A DNA stretch of 64,000 nucleotides from an uncultured Alphaproteobacteria bacterium. GTDB lineage: Bacteria > Pseudomonadota > Alphaproteobacteria > Rhizobiales > Beijerinckiaceae. Below the pieces are notes generated by a model. That model saw nothing but the letters and a program-made list of their open reading frames with translations. It had not been told where the DNA came from and made no database searches. A program made the position numbers and the translations under genes. The first letter of the stretch is position 1, and each line of letters begins with the position of its first letter. Shown here piece after piece: positions 2,952 to 54,623 of this stretch. The DNA lies in contig CAWGKV010000040.1 of the NCBI GenBank assembly GCA_963823165.1, positions 246,877 through 310,876 of the forward strand. The letters are read 5' to 3'.

Positions 2952-3821
2952 TCAGCGCCCGATCTTCGCCAGGCTGACCGGCGGGACCGAATCGTCCGGC
3001 ACGAAGAAGTCGGGTGCGAGGTCGACCGTCGGATCGACGCGATATCGGTCGAAGTCGCGCAGGCCGTTGTCGAACAAGAACGTGTCGTCGATCAGGAAGT
3101 TGCCGCTGAAGCTCTTGGCGTCCTTGAGGAAGATCATGCGCGCCGCGTCGGCCAGGATGCCGGGCGTGCGCGAGGCGCGCATCAGCGCGTCCCCGCCGAG
3201 CAAGTTCTTGACCGCCGCGGTCGCGATCGTCGTGCGCGGCCAGAGCGCGTTCACGGCGATGCCCCGGCTGCGCAACTCGCCGGCGAGGCCGAGCACGACG
3301 AGGCTCATGCCGTATTTCGCCATCGAATAAGCGGTGTGGCCGGCGAACCACTTCTCCTTCAGCTCGAGCGGCGGCGACAGCGTCAGGATATGCGGGTTGT
3401 CGGATTTCTGGAGCAGCGGCACGGCGAATTTCGACGTCATGAAGGTTCCGCGCGCGTTGATCTGATGCATGAGATCGAAGCGCTTCATGTCGGTCGCCTG
3501 CGAATTCGTCAGCGAAATGGCGCTCGCGTTGTTGACCACGATGTCGAGGCCGCCGAACGTCTCGGCCGTCTTTTCGAGCCCCGCCCGCACCTGCGCTTCG
3601 TCGCGGACGTCGACGACCAGCGGCAGCGCCTTGCCGCCGGACTTCTCGATCTCCTCCGCGGCGGAATAGATCGTGCCGGGCAGCTTCGGATTGGGCTCCG
3701 CCGTTTTGGCGGCGATGGCGACGTTCGCGCCGTCGCGCGCCGCAGCGAGGCCGATCGCCAGCCCGATGCCGCGCGAGGCGCCGGTGATGAACAGGGTCTT
3801 GCCGGAGAGCGTGGGCGCCAT
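2952..3821 (-). CDS. SDR oxidoreductase, HSDL2-like
   Basis: TGASRGIG, NNASA, YSMAK, NALWPRTTIATAA. The start was set at MAPTLSGK. Confidence 0.9.
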   Translation of the reverse strand: MAPTLSGKTLFITGASRGIGLAIGLAAARDGANVAIAAKTAEPNPKLPGTIYSAAEEIEKSGGKALPLVVDVRDEAQVRAGLEKTAETFGGLDIVVNNASAISLTNSQATDMKRFDLMHQINARGTFMTSKFAVPLLQKSDNPHILTLSPPLELKEKWFAGHTAYSMAKYGMSLVVLGLAGELRSRGIAVNALWPRTTIATAAVKNLLGGDALMRASRTPGILADAARMIFLKDAKSFSGNFLIDDTFLFDNGLRDFDRYRVDPTVDLAPDFFVPDDSVPPVSLAKIGR

Positions 3822-4129
3822 GGCAATTTCCAAAGTGGTTGACGTCGCGATCCATGGCGCCGGGAACCTAAGGGCGCAAGTCCCGAAGCCGCCTTCAGCG
3901 CCTCATTCCGTCTTGGCGAGGGGCTGGCGTCGCATCCGCGATGCGACCCGCCCACGACGGCGCCTTGTGGGTCGCAGGTTCAAATCCTCCGCGCGCGACT
4001 GCGTCCCATTGGACCTGTTCGGCTTATGATCTCCTCAATTTTGTCTGTTGGCGGTCCTCCATTCCCTGCGTAGCCTCCTGCTTCGGCTAGCGCCAATAAG
4101 ACAAATGAAAGAATAATGGGACACGCCGC

Positions 4130-4267
4130 ATGACCATTATAGCCATTGCTCTCGGCAGCCTCGGCATCGTCTCCTCCATTATCGTCTGGTCGGCCTGCGC
4201 TTTTGCGCCGCTGCCAGCCGACCCTCCGGAGCCATCGACAGTTCGACCGGCGCCGCCGCCGGCTTGA
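4130..4267 (+). CDS. Putative 45-aa small membrane protein (below the ORF-track cutoff)
   Basis: Hand translation gives MTIIAIALGSLGIVSSIIVWSACAFAPLPADPPEPSTVRPAPPPA: one hydrophobic helix and a Pro-rich tail. A GGGA lies upstream. Confidence 0.4.
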   Translation: MTIIAIALGSLGIVSSIIVWSACAFAPLPADPPEPSTVRPAPPPA

Positions 4268-8452: not shown

Positions 8453-8865
8453 AGGGAACTCCGTTTGGCATGGGATTCGTCGGCGATGATAGGGGCTCGT
8501 GGCCGTTATGCCAAACCGGAGAGCGCCGCCAGGTTTCAAGAAATGAGATCCTGTTTCAAATCCGCCTCCATCCTGCTGAGGCGCCCCGAAACGGGCCTCG
8601 ACAGCGGCGGCCAACCCGAGCGTCGCCGTAAGGCGAAGAATCGCGCCGAGGTCGCCATCAAAGCGCAAACGGCGATCGGGCCGGCGCGGAGTGGTCAGAC
8701 GTGAGTTTGCCAAGATACCGGCTCCTCATTGGCCGTCGGGAGGCTGTCAGGCCAGTGCAGCCTGGCGGCCGCGTGCTGCGTTTGTCCGAGCGCGAGCGAA
8801 TCCAGAGGATTGGGCGTGAAAAACTGTCGGCGACGGCTTACCCCTCCCGTTTCTCAAAGGCGCAC

Positions 8866-9093
8866 GAGAGGAGCAAGGGTGTTCGCCGGGCGGAGCGCCG
8901 CGGGCTTTGGCTCCCGCCTGCGAGCCGGCGGAATGTCTTTGAACGCAGCGGGAAGGCGGACGGCCGCCCGGGGAAGGAAACCGCGCGCCCGGGGGAAGCC
9001 AAAGGAACGCCAGGGGAAGCAAAAGGAACGCCAGGGGAAGCCAGATCCGTTCACCATTCTCGCCTTTTCAGTGACTTACACCAGATGTGGAGA
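8866..9093. repeat. Dispersed ~225-bp repeat, copy 1, with internal 21-bp tandem units
   Basis: About 85% identical by manual alignment to 53989-54213. Contains GGGGAAGCMAAAGGAACGCCA twice plus a partial third unit (8992-9042). Confidence 0.9.
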
Positions 9094-9261
9094 TGTGGCT
9101 TCGGCGGTTGCGCGTTTCAAAAATTCTTCATCGACCCCGTGCGGTCGATCAAGGTCAATAATCAACATCTCAGCGCCGTCCTTCCCTTCGTGCGCAATAC
9201 TAAAGGCTGCCACGAAGCCATCGCCGCGCGAGGTCGGGGTGGGCGCCAGGGGAGCGGACAA
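9076..9261 (-). CDS. Putative 61-aa SOS-controlled ORF ending inside the repeat (...SPHLV)
   Basis: GGAG-N7-TTG start, downstream of a TTGACA/LexA-box promoter. No recognisable domain. Confidence 0.3.
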   Translation of the reverse strand: MSAPLAPTPTSRGDGFVAAFSIAHEGKDGAEMLIIDLDRPHGVDEEFLKRATAEATSPHLV

Positions 9262-9287
9262 GGGAGGTCTCCGGAGCGGGTATCTTA

Positions 9288-9323
9288 GAACAAACAATGA
9301 ACATAGCTGGACCTCTTTGTCAA
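9288..9323 (-). promoter_or_regulatory. Sigma70-type promoter overlapped by an alphaproteobacterial LexA box
   Basis: GTTC-ATTGTTT-GTTC on the minus strand (9302-9288), an exact GTTC-N7-GTTC. Perfect -35 TTGACA at 9323-9318, with CATTGT 18 nt downstream. Confidence 0.7.
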
Positions 9324-9492
9324 CAGATTTTCTTCGGCCTTGTGCCCGCGCCTTTCCGCGGGCGGGCCGGGGATACGCTACTCAGCGCCAAAGACTGCCC
9401 TTTTCGCGGACCCCCGCCGCGGCCATTCGGGATGCGATATTATAGTTGACAAACCCAGCGCAAGGTGTATGGTCAAGTGAGGGATTTGGGTT

Positions 9493-10473
9493 ATGGCCAG
9501 CGTTCTCAATGAGGCATACTTTCAGGACGAACGAGTGGCTTTCAACGAGCTAGAGCGTATCGTTTGGCCGAATGATCCCGTTTGCCCATTCTGCGGCAAT
9601 ATGGGGCGCATGTATAAATTGGAGGGTGTCAGGACCAAGCCTAGCAAGAAAAACCCGGAAGGGATCGTCAGGCATGGGTTACGCAAGTGCGGTGAATGCC
9701 GGAAACAATTTACCGTTCGCAAAGGAACAATATTTGAGGACAGCCCAATTCCTTTGCATCTTTGGTTCCAAGCCTTTTACCTAATGTGTTCCAGCAAAAA
9801 GGGTATCAGCGCCAATCAGTTGCATCGCACGCTTGGCGTGACCCTGACGACGGGATGGTTCATAGGACATCGTCTGCGCGAAGCCATGCGCTCCGGCGAT
9901 CTGTCCCCCATGGGCGGGGCTGGGGGCATCGTCGAGATTGACGAGACCTACATCGGCAGGAAGGAAGGGCGCGATGTTGAGCGTGGAACTGGCCACAAAA
10001 ATGCAGTTGTAACGCTTGTCGAGCGCGGTGGCTCCGCGCGCTCTTTCCCTGTTGATCGCGCTACGCGCTCCGCAGTCGTCCCCATCGTCAGCGCGAATAT
10101 TGATTGCAAATCCCCGTGATGACAGATGAGTCCAATGTCTACACGAAGCTTGGAGAGCAGCTCGCGGCGGTTCGCGGCGCATGGTAAGGTCGATCACAGC
10201 CGCGATGAATACGCCTATACTGACCGCGCGACCGGCGTTAGCATTGGCGTTAACACAGTCGAGGGGTACTATTCCATCTTCAAACGCGGTATGAAGGGCG
10301 TTTACCAGCATTGCAAGGAGAAGCACCTTCACCGATATCTGGCTGAGTTCGATTTCCGTTACAGTAACCGGATCAAGTTGGGCGTGGACGATGAAATGCG
10401 GACGGAGCGTGCGCTTGCTGGCGTCGTTGGGAAGAGGTTGACCTATCGGGGCTCGTCAGCGGCGCGTGTGTGA
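9493..10473 (+). pseudogene. IS1595-family DDE transposase, interrupted
   Basis: Zn-ribbon CPFCG...CGECRKQFTVRKGTIFE, VEIDETY, VMTDE (in a shifted frame at 10116-10160), NTVEGYYSIFKRG and YLAEFDFRY. In-frame TGA TGA at 10117-10122. Confidence 0.93.
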
Positions 10474-11216
10474 GCGACATGCGCATCGGTACGAAATTAA
10501 CATGGATACTGGACGGGCGGCGCCCGAACCAAATTCCCTTGGCTCGCCTTGCAGAATATATGCAGAATCTTGCTGTGCTGTTTGGCGAGATAGACAATGT
10601 GCACTTCGAACAGGTTTTTGAAGGCTCTACTTGCCTTGAAGCGAAGATCAGGCCCGGAATTCCATCTCAGAGAGTGCAGGAAAGGGTAGCTGCGGTGCGC
10701 CAAAAGCGCGCGCCTGCGGACGCTATGAGGGCATATCACCGTCTTGATGAGATGGTACATGAAGATAGGGGACCAGCTAGGCTATCTTGCGGGCCGGCTA
10801 TAATACTTAGGTTCCCAGGTAAGGTTATAGAAAAATACAAACCAGCCTCTATCTTAGAGAGAGGAACAGTTGTTGGGCGTCTTTATTTTCTTATGGAGGA
10901 ATCTCCAGGGCAGCTAAGAGTGCGGATTCGGCCTAGAACGGGAAATGCATACGTCCCATGCACGGCGGACGGCAGCATTGGCCGCCATTTGAGAAACTAT
11001 TTCATGGACGCTGTACGTGCATCTGGTCGAGGAATGTGGGAGAGGATGGAAAGCGGAGAATGGTCTTGCCGTTCTCTCCATATTGATGATGTGCAGCCCG
11101 TCAAAGACAGTTCCCTCCGGGAGGCGATAAATGCCTTGAGGAACGTCGAAGCGCATTGGTCCGACGATCCGCTAGCAGAGTGGCTTGAAATTGAAGAAAG
11201 GAGCGGGGCCGCGTGA
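10470..11216 (+). CDS. Hypothetical 248-aa passenger protein, candidate partner or antitoxin of the PIN protein
   Basis: GTGA overlap with the transposase stop. N-terminal IPLARLAEYMQNLAVLFG...VHFEQVFEGS segment and a beta-rich C-terminal half. Confidence 0.85.
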   Translation: MSDMRIGTKLTWILDGRRPNQIPLARLAEYMQNLAVLFGEIDNVHFEQVFEGSTCLEAKIRPGIPSQRVQERVAAVRQKRAPADAMRAYHRLDEMVHEDRGPARLSCGPAIILRFPGKVIEKYKPASILERGTVVGRLYFLMEESPGQLRVRIRPRTGNAYVPCTADGSIGRHLRNYFMDAVRASGRGMWERMESGEWSCRSLHIDDVQPVKDSSLREAINALRNVEAHWSDDPLAEWLEIEERSGAA

Positions 11217-11806
11217 TCGCGGCGATGGATAATACGTTCCTGACTGTGCTGCTAAATCCTAACGCGGCACCGAGACCGAATCCAGCAACGCAGCAGCCGG
11301 TTCCGCATTGTCGCGAGCGCATTGAGGCGCTGATTGACGATCTTTCTCGCACGCAAGCTACTCTGATTGTACCAACTACTGCGCTCGCGGAAGCGCTCTG
11401 TGGTGATCAAGCTATAGAGGAGTACTTTTCCACCTTGCAGCAATTCTCGGCGATAGAGTTGGCTCCGTTTGATGGGAAAGCAGCTTATGAGTTTGCGCGT
11501 ATAATCCGAGAGGCAAAGGCAAAGGGAGACAAGCGTTCTGGACAGATTGGGGACTGGCAGAACGTGAAGATGGATCGAACGATTGTTGCCACCGCCATCT
11601 CTCGCTCAGCTTCCATCCTTTTTTCCGACGACGGCCCTCAGAAGAATTTTGCCATTGCCGCTGGATTGTCTGTTAAATCTACCTGGGACTTGGATTTGCC
11701 ACCAGAATACGCGCAACACCATATGAGCGAGATTGGCGATGCATCATGGCCGACTCAGAAAAAACCCCCCAAGTCGAGCGATTCAGAGCAACCGCTCGCG
11801 CGCTAG
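11213..11806 (+). CDS. PIN-domain (VapC-like) ribonuclease
   Basis: Four acidic positions in PIN order: MDNTFL, PTTALAE, KMDRTIVATA, LFSDD. GTGA overlap with the upstream gene. Confidence 0.8.
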   Translation: MIAAMDNTFLTVLLNPNAAPRPNPATQQPVPHCRERIEALIDDLSRTQATLIVPTTALAEALCGDQAIEEYFSTLQQFSAIELAPFDGKAAYEFARIIREAKAKGDKRSGQIGDWQNVKMDRTIVATAISRSASILFSDDGPQKNFAIAAGLSVKSTWDLDLPPEYAQHHMSEIGDASWPTQKKPPKSSDSEQPLAR

Positions 11807-11961
11807 GCTGCGATGAGGATAAGGAAAAGTTTGAGGCCGCGCTAAAGAAAATCGCAGCAAAAATCGCAGCACATAAACCCCGCAAGGACGGCGCAAATAG
11901 CTCCAAACGGAGAACTACCAAAAAATTGAAGAAAACAACTGAGGCTAGCCAACAGCAATAG
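11746..11961 (+). CDS. Small basic 71-aa protein (QVERF...ARALGCDED motif)
   Basis: Compact helical core QVERFRATARALGCDEDKEKFEAALKKIA followed by a Lys-rich tail. I recall similar ORFs beside IS1595 transposases, but this is unverified. Confidence 0.6.
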   Translation: MADSEKTPQVERFRATARALGCDEDKEKFEAALKKIAAKIAAHKPRKDGANSSKRRTTKKLKKTTEASQQQ

Positions 11962-12570
11962 CTATAGGTCGGGAACAATAACGAGACGCCCAGAAAAACG
12001 ACGCATGTCGTAAGTTCTTTTGACACTATCCTGCTTTAGGCCATGAAGCCAACTATACGTTGTCTCCATTTCAATTCTGGTTGACTCAGTTGCTGGCATA
12101 GACCCTAGTAAAAACCTTAAGCCGCAATCTTGTGTGGCGATGTCTGATGGGCGCAGAATTGATATTATTGGGTTGCCTTGGAGAGGGGCATTACCGCTGT
12201 AGACGTAGTTTCCGCGTGACCTTATCTTTCTACCTTCGTTCCAGATTGTGCAGGTTGTTACCAAATCGGTCAAAGTCCATGAGCCTGAATTACCCAATGT
12301 AAATAATGTTTCGGATAAGTTGTTGGCGCTGAACGCCGCAATCTGTATCGTCAACCGTGGCTGAAAGGTGTGAGAGAAATTGAAGATGAAAAGAAATGCC
12401 GCCACATAAAACCAGACATTGCGGAACGTTCGATCAATCGACAGCGTCGCTCTTAGGAAGCTTGCTAGGAATGCTTGCAGGAAAACTCGTTGGCGTCGTG
12501 GCGGCTCTTGCGACGGTTGTTCTGGCGTTTGCGGTGGTGTGGTTTCTGATTCATCATCTGTAGCAGACAT
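11962..12570 (-). CDS. Hypothetical 202-aa passenger protein with one predicted TM helix
   Basis: Acidic, Pro-rich N-terminus, hydrophobic VWFYVAAFLFIFNF and a beta-rich remainder. AT-rich codons; a promoter lies in the right TIR. Confidence 0.7.
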   Translation of the reverse strand: MSATDDESETTPPQTPEQPSQEPPRRQRVFLQAFLASFLRATLSIDRTFRNVWFYVAAFLFIFNFSHTFQPRLTIQIAAFSANNLSETLFTLGNSGSWTLTDLVTTCTIWNEGRKIRSRGNYVYSGNAPLQGNPIISILRPSDIATQDCGLRFLLGSMPATESTRIEMETTYSWLHGLKQDSVKRTYDMRRFSGRLVIVPDL

Positions 12571-16135: not shown

Positions 16136-16509
16136 GAGGATCCTTCCGTCTACAAGGCTGACGACAAGCGTCTGTTTCAGAAGTCATGGACCTCAGCGTC
16201 TGAATTGGCCACCCCGGCGGCGCCGGCGCATTGGGCACGAAAGTTCCAGTGGCAGAGCGTCGGCTGGAACTGCGACTGGCCGAGGCCGTCCTCGAGACGG
16301 CCGCGCTTCGAGCGACCGGATGGAAGTCGGCGCTGCGATGCGTTCGACTGGAAACGGACGATAGCCGTCCGCCCGGACGGCACGGAGCTCGCGCGAGGGC
16401 CGCTCGAAACGCCTCGAGGGGCGGCGGAACGCCATGGAGCCGACGCCACGTTGGACGACGATCCAAGCCAGGGAAACTTCCGCCAAAGGACCGGATAGAC
16501 GGAGCAATG

Positions 16510-16590
16510 CCAGAGAAAGCCGAAGCAAAGCAAAAGTGTTCCATGAACCGAGGCTTTTCAAAGACTTAGGCCGGAATCCAAATTCTTTTG
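16510..16590. repeat. Divergent partial member of the 8.9/54 kb repeat family (core only)
   Basis: CGAGGCTTTTCAAAGACTTAGGCCGGAATCCAAATT aligns with CTCGCCTTTTCAGTGACTTACACCAGA (copy 1) and CTTTCAACGGCTTACACCAGA...TCCAAATT (copy 2), after an A-rich tract. Confidence 0.5.
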
Positions 16591-19967: not shown

Positions 19968-20100
19968 CGAAACGAACCGCTTCCTCCGGCCGAAAACACC
20001 AAGGCCACAAGGCTGGAACTTTCGTGCGAAGCGGGTCGGCGCCGCCGGTGGCCAACCACAGGACGAGGATGGGTTGGCGCCGGCTTGAAATCCTCGCGCG

Positions 20101-52711: not shown

Positions 52712-53886
52712 ATGGCCATCGAGGGACGCAGCGACGCCAGGAAGGGCGGCAGGATCAGGCTCGGCATGGTCGGCGGCGGGGAGGGCGCATTCATCGGCGC
52801 GGTCCACCGCATCGCCTCGCGCATCGACGACCAGTACGAGCTCGTGGCCGGGGCCCTGTCGTCGACGCCGGAGAAGGCGCGCCGCTCGGGCGAGGCGCTC
52901 GGCCTCGCCGAGGACCGGATCTACGACGACTACGACAGCATGGCGAAGGCCGAGGCCAAGCGTCCGGACGGGATCGAGGCGGTGGCCATCGTCACGCCGA
53001 ACAACGTCCACGCCGGCCCGACCTACGCCTTCCTCAAGGCCGGGATCCACGTCATCTGCGACAAGCCGCTGACCGTGTCGCTCGCCGAAGCCAAAAAGAT
53101 GAAGGCGGCGGTCGACAAGTCGGGGCGGATTTTCGCCCTCACCCACAACTACACCGGCTACCCGCTGGTGCGCCGCATGCGCGAGATGGTCCGCGACGGC
53201 GACCTCGGCGAGATCCGCCTCGTCCAGGTCGAATATCCGCAGGACTGGCTGACCGGCCCGACCGAGACGACCGGCAACAAGCAGGCCGCGTGGCGGGTCG
53301 ATCCGAAGCAGTCGGGCGCGGGCGGGGCGCTCGGCGACATCGGCACCCACGCCTTCAACCTCGCCGACTACGTGAGCGGGCTCGAGCTCGCGGAGCTTTC
53401 CGCCGACCTCACCTCGTTCGGCGCAGGGCGCGCGCTCGACGACAACGTCCAGATCATGCTGCGCTACGCCAACGGCGCGCGCGGCGCGCTTTGGGCGAGC
53501 CAGGTCGCGCCAGGAAACGAGAACGGCCTCATGCTGAGGGTCTACGGGACGAAGGGCGGCGTCCACTGGCGCCAGGACAATCCCAATTCCCTGTTCTGGA
53601 CGCCGTACGAGAAGTCGACCCGCATCGTGACCCGCGGCGGCCCGGATTCCGGCGAGGCGGCGGGGCGGGTGACGCGCGTGCCGCCGGGGCATCCGGAGGG
53701 CTACCTCGAAGGCTTCGCCAACATCTACACAGAGGTCGCGGCGGCGATCAAGTCGCGGCGCGGACGGGCAAGAAGCCGCCGAAGGGGGTGAATTTCCCGA
53801 CCATCGACGACGGGGTGAAAGGCCTCGCCTTCATCGAGGCGGCGGTGAAATCGTCAAAAGCCAATGGCAAGTGGGTGAAGCCGTAG
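52712..53886 (+). pseudogene. Gfo/Idh/MocA oxidoreductase with a -1 frameshift near 53755
   Basis: LGMVGGG, IVTPNNVH, ICDKPL, GDIGTHA. The natural C-terminus (FPTIDDGVKGLAFIEAAVKSS) is in the next frame. Confidence 0.88.
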
Positions 53887-53988
53887 GCGGTCGGACGGCG
53901 CTCTTCCCCTCTCGGGGCCCGTCAGACGGAGCGGTCCGGGCCGGCCGCGGACGACTAGCGAGAGCGATCAACTCGAACGTCCGCCAAC

Positions 53989-54213
53989 GAGAGGGCAAGG
54001 GCGTTCGCCAGGCGGAGCGCCGTGGGCTTTTGCGCCGTCCGCGAGCCGGCGGAACGTCCTGGAACGCAGCGGGAAGGCGGCTGGCCCCTCGGGGAATGAA
54101 GCCTCACGCCCGGGGAAGCCAAAGGAACGCCGGGGGAAGCAAAAGGAACGCCAGGGGAAACCGAATCCGTTCACGATTCTCGTCCTTTCAACGGCTTACA
54201 CCAGATGCGGAGA
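53989..54213. repeat. Dispersed ~225-bp repeat, copy 2
   Basis: About 85% identical to 8866-9093, same orientation, same 21-bp tandem units. Confidence 0.9.
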
Positions 54214-54423
54214 GTCCAAATTGTTTTCCGTCCGCCGGCCTGCTGCCGGCGCCGTCCAACGCCAAGCAGCCGGCCCGCGTCCATCCTCGTTCCCATGGAG
54301 GCTTCGCGCGATATCGTCATAGGCGCATCGCTCGCGGCGCAGGGCGAGGAATGCGCCCTCGGCGCACGATCCTGCCAGAGGCATCGAGCCGGCGATTGAT
54401 GGCCGGCGCGGTAATTCGTCCAT
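54196..54423 (-). CDS. Putative 75-aa SOS-controlled ORF ending inside the repeat (...SPHLV)
   Basis: GGAGAG upstream of the ATG, downstream of a LexA-boxed promoter. No recognisable domain. Confidence 0.3.
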   Translation of the reverse strand: MDELPRRPSIAGSMPLAGSCAEGAFLALRRERCAYDDIARSLHGNEDGRGPAAWRWTAPAAGRRTENNLDSPHLV

Positions 54424-54495
54424 GCTTGCCTCGCTCTCCCGGCGGGTTCGGCGGGGTTGGCGCCAAAGAATGTCCCCGTCCGGATGTCTGCCACT

Positions 54496-54524
54496 ATAAT
54501 GTTCCCTATTTGTTCGTTTGGCAA
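54496..54524 (-). promoter_or_regulatory. Sigma70-type promoter with a LexA box between -35 and -10
   Basis: GTTC-CCTATTT-GTTC at 54501-54515 (exact GTTC-N7-GTTC). Minus-strand TTGCCA (54524-54519)-N17-CATTAT. Confidence 0.7.
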
Positions 54525-54623
54525 GCAATTTTCGCTTCGCCGCCGAATATGGCGCTCATTTTGAGTAAAGCGCCGAAATGCCCCTGTCCGGTTTCGACTT
54601 GAAAACGTTGCGCTCCTGGCCGT

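Follow-up and report, generated by a model that had tools for sequence, protein, structure and literature searches.

Organization of locus 2 and its repeat

The sequence analysed here is a stretch of 64,000 nucleotides (nt) from an uncultured bacterium of the Alphaproteobacteria (Rhizobiales, Beijerinckiaceae; assembly GCA_963823165.1, contig CAWGKV010000040.1, positions 246,877 to 310,876), which we refer to in its entirety as the window. Our subject is an intergenic unit near its right end, locus 2 (about 53960-54540), in which a predicted LexA-controlled promoter faces a repeat that also occurs at a second place in the window, locus 1. The genes to the left of locus 2 were assigned by Pfam to a periplasmic binding protein, a xylose-isomerase-like TIM barrel protein and a Gfo/Idh/MocA oxidoreductase, and those to the right to a MalK-type ATPase, two permeases and a solute-binding protein. 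These assignments to sugar uptake and catabolism confirm the initial annotation, which had been made from the sequence and had placed the unit between two convergent sugar-uptake operons. That annotation had also proposed a repeat common to the two loci, and this was recovered as a direct repeat of about 222 nt (53992-54214 against 8870-9094) with about 86% identity and the same orientation. Homology between the two loci ends abruptly at the sequence GGAGA (54213 and 9093 respectively), and contigs assembled from soil diverge directly past it. The features of both units are listed in Table 1.

The repeat core is best described as the RNA that would be read from the minus strand, with the consensus ...CUCUCCACAUCUGGUGUAAGCCAUUGAAAAGGCGAGAAUCGUGAACGGAUnUGGCUUCCCCUGGCGUUCCUUUUGCUUCCCCnGGCGUUCCUUUGGCUUCCCCGGGGCGnGCGGUUUCCUUCCCCGGGGGACCGGCnGCCUUCCCGCUGCGUUCCAGGACGUUCC..., which holds five CUUCCC and three UUCCUU motifs, CUUCCC(C) recurring every 21-22 nt. 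At locus 2 this array would give five CUUCCC(C) and two to three GUUCCUUU motifs, and on the plus strand GGGAA is found at 54071, 54092, 54113, 54134 and 54155, an exact 21-nt period. The number of units differs between copies of the repeat, from three in the copy designated L002 to six or seven in L101. Read in the same direction the arrays have a C/G ratio of 1.2-1.56 and contain only 5-9% A.

Facing the core on the minus strand, TTGCCA-N17-CATTAT was the sole sigma-70-like site found between 53800 and 54700 in a consensus scan, against a mean of 0.1 in shuffled sequence, and from it transcription would start leftward near 54487-54490. Within its spacer a pattern scan of the window located the perfect GTTC-N7-GTTC direct repeat GTTCCCTATTTGTTC. 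GTTC-N7-GTTC is the published LexA motif of Caulobacter (PMC12700426), so that locus 2 has an operator of the type found in the alphaproteobacterial LexA (SOS) regulon and, as far as consensus matching goes, has it overlapping the core promoter in the way that is characteristic of that regulon. Both the promoter and the box lie where they had been annotated, and the proposal that an SOS-type operator occupies a repressing position on a minus-strand promoter facing the repeat thus appears to hold. Hexamers of the TTGACA type occupy the equivalent of the locus 2 -35 position in other copies of the repeat. A strain variant is present in soil, on a 1021-nt contig from run X1, with 3 nt deleted at 54496-54498; the -10 hexamer becomes CATAGT at unchanged spacing, which indicates that the promoter is preserved.

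Table 1. Coordinates of the locus 2 and locus 1 units within the window
Feature	Position	Strand	Basis
-35 hexamer TTGCCA	54519-54524	-	Promoter scan, 9 of 12 matches, 17-nt spacer
Candidate LexA-type operator GTTCCCTATTTGTTC	54501-54515		Alphaproteobacterial GTTC-N7-GTTC, within promoter spacer
-10 hexamer CATTAT	54496-54501	-	Promoter scan
Leader (spacer), non-conserved, holding the 75- and 117-amino-acid open reading frames	54215-54495	-	Spacer comparison at shuffled level
Promoter-proximal repeat end, conserved (plus strand ATCCGTTCACGATTCTCGTCCTTTCAACGGCTTACACCAGATGCGGAGA)	54166-54214	-	Alignment of copies
Array of five 21-nt units	54069-54165	-	Tandem-repeat analysis; most conserved part of the family
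Promoter-distal repeat part	53992-54068	-	Common to locus 1 and about 9 of 14 copies
Locus 1 repeat core	8870-9094	-	Similarity to locus 2
Locus 1 LexA-type box (minus strand GTTCATTGTTTGTTC)	9288-9302		Downstream of minus-strand TTGACA (9323-9318)
Degenerate third repeat-end fragment, no box near	16506-16576	+	nhmmer E about 0.1-0.3, weak

Linkage of the box to the repeat family

Further copies were sought by the sequence of the repeat alone, without reference to the box. The query was a pseudo-protein made from all reading frames of the core, which matched spurious open reading frames (ORFs) of 170-338 amino acids lying over other copies. The contigs found in this way gave L094, L095, L096 (with two tandem units, a and b), L097, L098, L099, L100, L101 and L102; with L001 and L002 these make 12 new copies, and together with the two loci of the window 14 full copies.

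A LexA-type box was found in all 14, and always to the right of the core in the orientation of the window. Eleven boxes are perfect and three have one mismatch (GTCC...GTTC in both L096 units, GAAC...GAAT in L097). In 946 kb of related loci there are only 16 boxes, a background of 0.017 per kb, and the probability that at least 11 of 14 copies would have a box within 600 nt is about 4e-20. The initial annotation had considered two exact boxes, on the same side of both long repeat copies, unlikely by chance. Within the window this does not stand, since three GTTC-N7-GTTC boxes compare with 2.18 expected and 33 of 100 shuffles reach three; it does stand once the 14 copies are taken together.

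The distance from the box to an anchor in the core was 224-256 nt in six of the 11 copies measured, and longer at locus 2 (343 nt), L094 (410 nt), L095 (545 nt) and the two L096 units (546 and 559 nt); in L100, L101 and L102 the boxes lie 153-160 nt past the end of the profile. In most copies the box overlaps a -35/-10 pair facing the core, and the manner in which it does so varies. The box lies exactly between the hexamers of TTGACA-N17-AATAAT in L098; over the -10 hexamer of TTGACA-N17-TATATG in L097, TTGACA-N17-CACTAT in L099 and TTGCGC-N17-ATATAT in L094; directly after the -10 hexamer of TTGCCG-N17-CATTGT in L095; and 6 nt upstream of TTGTCA-N17-CATTGT in L001. These arrangements are non-homologous among the copies, and the polarity of the box is GTTC in nine and GAAC in five. 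In the related pairs, locus 1 with L099 and L100 with L102, the half-sites are kept while the 7-nt spacer of the box has changed at four to five positions. Upstream of the array no plus-strand promoter was seen by eye, and no promoter scan was made on the other copies. The neighbour on the side of the core is convergent with the unit in five copies and runs in the same direction in another five, and the unit cannot therefore be read simply as the promoter of a downstream gene. Regulation therefore seems to be retained while the promoter and box sequences turn over, and we conclude that what selection has kept would be SOS-type control of leftward transcription into the core. This part of the interpretation, the promoter and its operator, is probably correct. 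In L001 (3652-4290, minus strand) the box is also preceded by an opposite-strand TTGACA that faces a low-GC ORF of about 160 amino acids, and there the operator might additionally control divergent transcription.

The spacers between box and core behave quite differently from the core. Their similarity between copies was 0.575, against 0.570 after shuffling, whereas the cores average 0.80. In L096 a GC-rich hairpin, GGCCGGGACAAGCCCGGCC, which looks like an unrelated palindromic repeat, has been inserted into the spacers (3015-3050, 3160-3195, 4045-4075 and 4195-4225), indicating that the spacer tolerates insertions.

Two ORFs had been annotated at locus 2, and both exist and end as described: one of 75 amino acids beginning with ATG after an upstream GAGG (54423-54196, ending SPHLV*) and a TTG frame of 117 amino acids (54524-54171, ending WCKPLKGRES*). 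Neither is conserved between copies. Because homology ends at GGAGA, only the last five codons of the ORFs lie within the repeat, whose promoter-proximal end contains the ORF-shared TAA (54196-54198) and a GUG (54172-54174). Measured in 11 copies, the frame terminating in the repeat extends over 101, 119, 102, 22, 116, 33, 80, 227, 44, 32 and 60 codons; L002 offers no start for it, L098 has CAA in place of its stop, and the leader ORF products are unrelated except in their last residues. An alignment of the copies revealed no frame kept across the repeat, and we found no recurrent ORF with a ribosome-binding site and no hydrophobic product, the maximal 15-residue hydropathy being at most 1.3. 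Within the core GUG or AUG occurs at the same column in nine of 11 aligned copies and the first 21 codons look conserved (MNGxGFPWRSFCFPxRSFGFP). Past residue 21 the frame in which this conserved DNA is read differs, giving LPAAFQDVP in some copies and FPLRSRTF in others, and variation in the core shows no third-position bias. The 68-amino-acid ORF inside the repeat had no homologue among 5.8 billion proteins, a search that covered this ORF and not the 75- and 117-amino-acid products, and the proteins matched by the all-frame core query were spurious ORFs lying in several frames over the repeat. Open frames arise there because the strand is very poor in A. Without a conserved frame, a codon bias or a homologue the unit reads as non-coding, and by this comparison the short ORFs are not genes and lack coding constraint. 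The same caution applies to deposited annotations. Public gene calls P0001-P0011, of 170-338 amino acids and in several frames, cover copies of the repeat (for instance window positions 8701-9288), and these are almost certainly spurious ORFs, a product of the A-poor repeat.

Exact and degenerate repeat patterns were found in one species-level genome of the 185,579 in GTDB, which carries the repeat twice (L001 and L002). In JGI metagenomes and viral contigs these patterns gave chance matches only, and BLAST against plasmid and phage collections gave no match to the repeat. Orthologues of the oxidoreductase place the window among uncultured Alphaproteobacteria of soil, the nearest being metagenome-assembled genomes (MAGs) of Microflora Danica (95% amino acid identity to MFD04463.bin.1.222) and Roseiarcus MAGs (80-88%), which belong to the Hyphomicrobiales. 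Roseiarcus-like bacteria of soil (Hyphomicrobiales), a small and uncultured clade, thus appear to be the only carriers of the repeat family. In soil runs containing the window, 60-90 different contigs per run carry the core, at about 70-80 times the depth of its flanks; the box and leader are single-copy there, and the array is the part of the unit with the highest depth. The core is also present on short soil contigs assembled independently of this MAG. From the depth and the contig counts, the repeat is a real multi-copy family in that soil community, and the box-promoter-repeat module of about 0.5 kb is previously undescribed.

A relative of the promoter-proximal repeat end, about 45 nt long (..GATTC..TTTCAAnGGnTTAGGCG), occurs alone in related genomes (L018 7175-7290; L020 7240-7300; L021 7185-7270; L015 7455-7500; L096 2766-2807 and 3760-3790; L094 2945-2975). 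In four relatives this stand-alone motif directly follows the stop codon of the oxidoreductase gene, and in three of these it is followed by three to four tandem 8-mers (CAACTTCA, TCGCTTCG, GTCACTTT). It has the look of an intergenic motif family that is older or more widespread.

SOS regulons are usually catalogued by gene, and here a LexA-type operator is linked to a dispersed non-coding repeat family. That the linkage is kept in every copy despite full turnover of promoter architecture and spacer is, on comparative grounds, a strong sign that the regulation has been selected. Should the transcript prove real, it would add a multi-copy RNA output to the alphaproteobacterial DNA-damage response, and this would be a rare case of a whole repeat family wired to one stress regulator.

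Possible function of the unit

The anatomy of the unit, the family-wide linkage of box, promoter and repeat and the absence of coding constraint were observed directly. LexA control, the transcript and its action, together with everything else beyond the anatomy, we infer from sequence. Our preferred explanation is that locus 2 belongs to a multi-copy family of LexA-repressed, non-coding transcription units whose conserved C/U-rich domain is functional, and taken as a whole we consider this explanation about evenly balanced between right and wrong. In the undamaged cell LexA on the operator would keep the sigma-70-type promoter off. Upon DNA damage LexA would cleave itself and release the promoter, and RNA polymerase would then run leftward on the minus strand, through a freely varying leader of about 200-550 nt and on into a C/U-rich domain of 160-220 nt that is conserved and has little structure. 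This domain, with its three to seven phased CUUCCC(C) and GUUCCUUU motifs, would be the selected part, and the product would be a non-coding RNA rather than a protein. Many copies would fire together in the SOS response. Rho loads on C-rich, G-poor, unstructured RNA, and the array would be a natural loading site for it; this would explain how the unit could end without an intrinsic terminator, even where it faces a convergent gene.

As to what such an RNA might do, perhaps the likeliest action is that the exposed pyrimidine motifs would pair with purine-rich sequences resembling Shine-Dalgarno sites (GGGGAAG, AAAGGAAC) or bind a protein, although either role for the motifs is, by our estimate, rather doubtful. 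A more ambitious form of the idea, which we think unlikely, is an SOS-inducible battery of anti-Shine-Dalgarno RNAs, in which a dozen or more copies per genome would be derepressed together on damage and their CUUCCCC and GUUCCUUU motifs would tie up purine-rich ribosome-binding sites or an RNA chaperone that binds purines. If true, such a battery would throttle translation or division genome-wide and would constitute a post-transcriptional arm of the SOS response built on dispersed repeats. The unit resembles a trans-acting anti-Shine-Dalgarno small RNA in having its own promoter, by consensus, and repeated C/U-rich motifs in unpaired regions, but a compact conserved structure with an intrinsic terminator was not found.

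Several observations weigh against an RNA product. Folding of the array was no better than that of shuffled sequences (z from +1.76 to -0.81), the full transcript likewise, and neither strand gave a stable fold. Some changes in the best candidate helix are compatible with G-U pairing, but its covariation score was reached in 63 of 500 shuffles, and no significant covariation was found in the core. Given that neither covariation nor a fold was found, the case for an RNA comes from the promoter and the lack of a coding signal. Nothing after the repeat was recognised as an intrinsic terminator or a defined 3' end, pairing of the leader with the array was no better than in shuffles and no target was identified. 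The promoters of L096 and of L100 and L102 are weak by consensus, and small RNAs do not usually have a non-conserved leader of about 250 nt before their functional domain. No RNA runs containing the sequence were found. Finally, the exact 21-bp phasing fits a DNA-binding array equally well.

Comparison with known systems is informative in this respect. IstR-2 of Escherichia coli is a LexA-regulated small RNA, and its example is not isolated. An SOS-linked small RNA is described in Klebsiella (PMC10907235) and LexA sites at small RNA genes in Mycobacterium tuberculosis (PMC3381160). Like these, the present unit appears to have a LexA-type operator overlapping the promoter of a unit without coding constraint. 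Those small RNAs are single-copy and short with defined terminators, in contrast to the many dispersed copies, long variable leader, tandem-repeat body and lack of a recognisable terminator found here, and there is no sequence similarity. Among the anti-Shine-Dalgarno small RNAs of the Alphaproteobacteria are alpha-r14/NfeR1 of Sinorhizobium and CcsR1-4 of Rhodobacter, with which the repeat shares several C/U-rich motifs per RNA, a multi-copy family and an alphaproteobacterial host. Their motifs (CCUCCUCCC) lie in the hairpin loops of compact, terminator-bearing RNAs driven by stress sigma factors and not by LexA. Unlike these families, the repeat of the window has no Rfam match; covariance-model searches against Rfam 15 gave either nothing or noise (E>1) outside the repeat. 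The 6C RNA of Actinobacteria is similar in being an RNA with C-rich motifs tied to the DNA-damage response. It is a single-copy RNA of about 90 nt with two hairpins and a SigA/SigB-dependent promoter (PMC5014011). There is no homology between the two, and 6C lacks the tandem array. As we read it, the unit works like a LexA-regulated small RNA whose motif style recalls the anti-Shine-Dalgarno RNAs and 6C; having no Rfam match, compact structure or terminator, it is a member of none of these families.

The remaining resemblances are to systems of other kinds. SOS-induced type I toxin-antitoxin loci such as tisB/istR, dinQ/agrB and symE/symR are also small, lineage-specific intergenic modules with a LexA box and short ORFs, often in several copies, but here the conserved part is a non-coding repeat. 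As for their antisense RNA, a weak plus-strand promoter candidate of the extracytoplasmic function (ECF) type was all that we found, and with no conserved or hydrophobic toxin ORF and no recurrent ORF a type I locus was rejected. The iterons of plasmids and phages and the ToxI arrays of type III toxin-antitoxin systems share the tandem direct repeats of about 21 nt and the variable number of units. They differ in that none of the 14 contexts has an adjacent Rep or toxin gene and that the copies are dispersed on chromosomal contigs. A ToxI-like system was likewise rejected, as no gene follows the locus 2 array and the neighbours differ in every copy.

These likenesses lead to the first of the alternatives, that the core acts as DNA. 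It would then be an iteron-like array of three to seven direct repeats with a period of 21-22 bp (two helical turns), serving as the binding site of a protein such as a replication, partition, recombination or nucleoid factor, and SOS-induced transcription across it would switch its binding or activity. The exact period of GGGAA, a unit number that varies between copies as described above, primary sequence conserved without RNA structure and a less GC-rich stretch after the array are what such an element would be expected to show, and at least three direct repeats at about 21-22 bp are found in iteron-type origins and partition sites too. However, no copy lies next to a gene for a cognate binding protein: the neighbours are unrelated housekeeping or metabolic genes with no Rep or Par among them (no specific search for DnaA boxes was made). 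Neither an origin nor a centromere would be expected in many dispersed chromosomal copies, inverted ends and attachment-site structure are absent, and outside the core the only conserved feature is a promoter aimed at it. We therefore regard the array as an unlikely binding site in its own right.

A selfish origin is also improbable in our judgement. On this explanation the unit would be a non-autonomous mobile or duplicative repeat without benefit to the host, and the LexA-controlled promoter would serve the cycle of the element, for example if DNA damage led an enzyme encoded elsewhere to mobilise it. In its favour, the family has many copies and is restricted to a narrow clade, and next to locus 1 are an IS1595-family transposase gene and DNA of lower GC. 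L099 matches window positions 8889-9348, a unit of about 460 bp comprising core, spacer and promoter, at 73.5% identity between different flanking genes. Taken with the two tandem units of L096, this match implies that the module duplicates or moves as a whole. At the 24 closest orthologous loci neither the repeat nor any box follows the oxidoreductase gene, and homology to the window stops at the stop codon of that gene, or at 53947 in L016. The initial annotation had proposed insertion as an autonomous module, and the absence from 24 relatives and the displacement of the 8889-9348 unit support it; an unambiguous empty site could not be demonstrated, since synteny is lost immediately beyond the oxidoreductase gene, the right-hand operon being adjacent to it in none of 80 orthologous loci.

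Against a selfish repeat, the copies showed no consistent terminal inverted repeats, and a comparison of the unit boundaries of locus 1 and L099 gave no evident target-site duplication. Compared with miniature inverted-repeat transposable elements (MITEs) and transposons, therefore, the family occurs in several copies in unrelated contexts but lacks inverted ends and target duplication. Its spacers have diverged to saturation, yet cores and operators are retained, which points to long residence under selection rather than recent spread, and the promoters of different copies are not homologous. On the criteria that define each, the unit did not qualify as a MITE, an integron cassette or an iteron origin; by eye, the defining features of an integron attC site, an IS200/IS605 (TTAC) target, a Tn7-like end, a sigma-32 or sigma-54 promoter and a tRNA-like end were not consistently present.

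It is very unlikely that the relevant transcript comes from the plus strand. In this case an ECF-type promoter within the core (GGAAC, 19 nt, GTT) would fire rightward toward the SOS promoter, to give a convergent sense and antisense pair. GGAAC-N19-GTT is invariant in 13 of 14 copies and AAAAGGAAC(G/C)CCAGGGGAA-N5-ATCCGTTC is the most invariant block of all. A published EcfG motif is GGAAC-N17-20-GTT (PMC6599016), in which a 19-nt spacing is at the long, low-scoring edge. Moreover L101 has CCGTAC in place of CCGTTC, an ATG follows the core in only seven of 14 copies with unconserved sequence downstream, and the short stand-alone copies of the motif lack GGAAC. Upstream of the array no plus-strand promoter was seen by eye, and no promoter scan was made on the other copies.

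Least credible of all is that the unit encodes a small protein or peptide, whether the 75- or 117-amino-acid ORF, an SOS-induced type I leader toxin or a Phe/Pro/Arg-rich heptad peptide begun at the GUG or AUG: SOS-induced small toxins are a known class, the ORFs are open in most copies and the shared start is preceded by AAAGG(C)GAG (in L001 the column reads GCG and an AUG lies one codon earlier in the same frame, and L002 lacks a start), but the leader ORFs are unrelated in both sequence and length, and the loss of start, stop and frame, the absence of a toxin-like product and of homologues, and the open frames expected from an A-poor sequence, all set out above, speak against it.

Other features of the flanking DNA

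The oxidoreductase gene to the left of locus 2 (52712-53886) is split into overlapping frames (52712-53791 and 53290-53886) with the switch near 53750. Either a frameshift or an indel in the assembly must be the cause, and single-base indels of the assembly should accordingly not be over-interpreted. Just downstream of the orthologous oxidoreductase gene in related genomes, AT-rich near-palindromic patches (TATAACAGT... / ...ACTGTTATATA) are found within GC-rich intergenic DNA (L016 7375-7400, L018 7285-7325, L022 7215-7250). They may be operators of an unrelated regulator.

Immediately to the right of locus 1 is the transposase gene mentioned above, of the IS1595/ISXO2 family (9493-10473), which is split into two ORFs (9493-10119 and 10126-10473). 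Beyond it, from 10470 to 12570, are lower-GC ORFs of no obvious function. Further to the right, a 36-nt inverted repeat (16214-16249 and 20013-20048, 83% complementary) encloses about 3.8 kb in which the degenerate repeat fragment and several small genes are found, and this bracketed segment may be a transposon-like unit.

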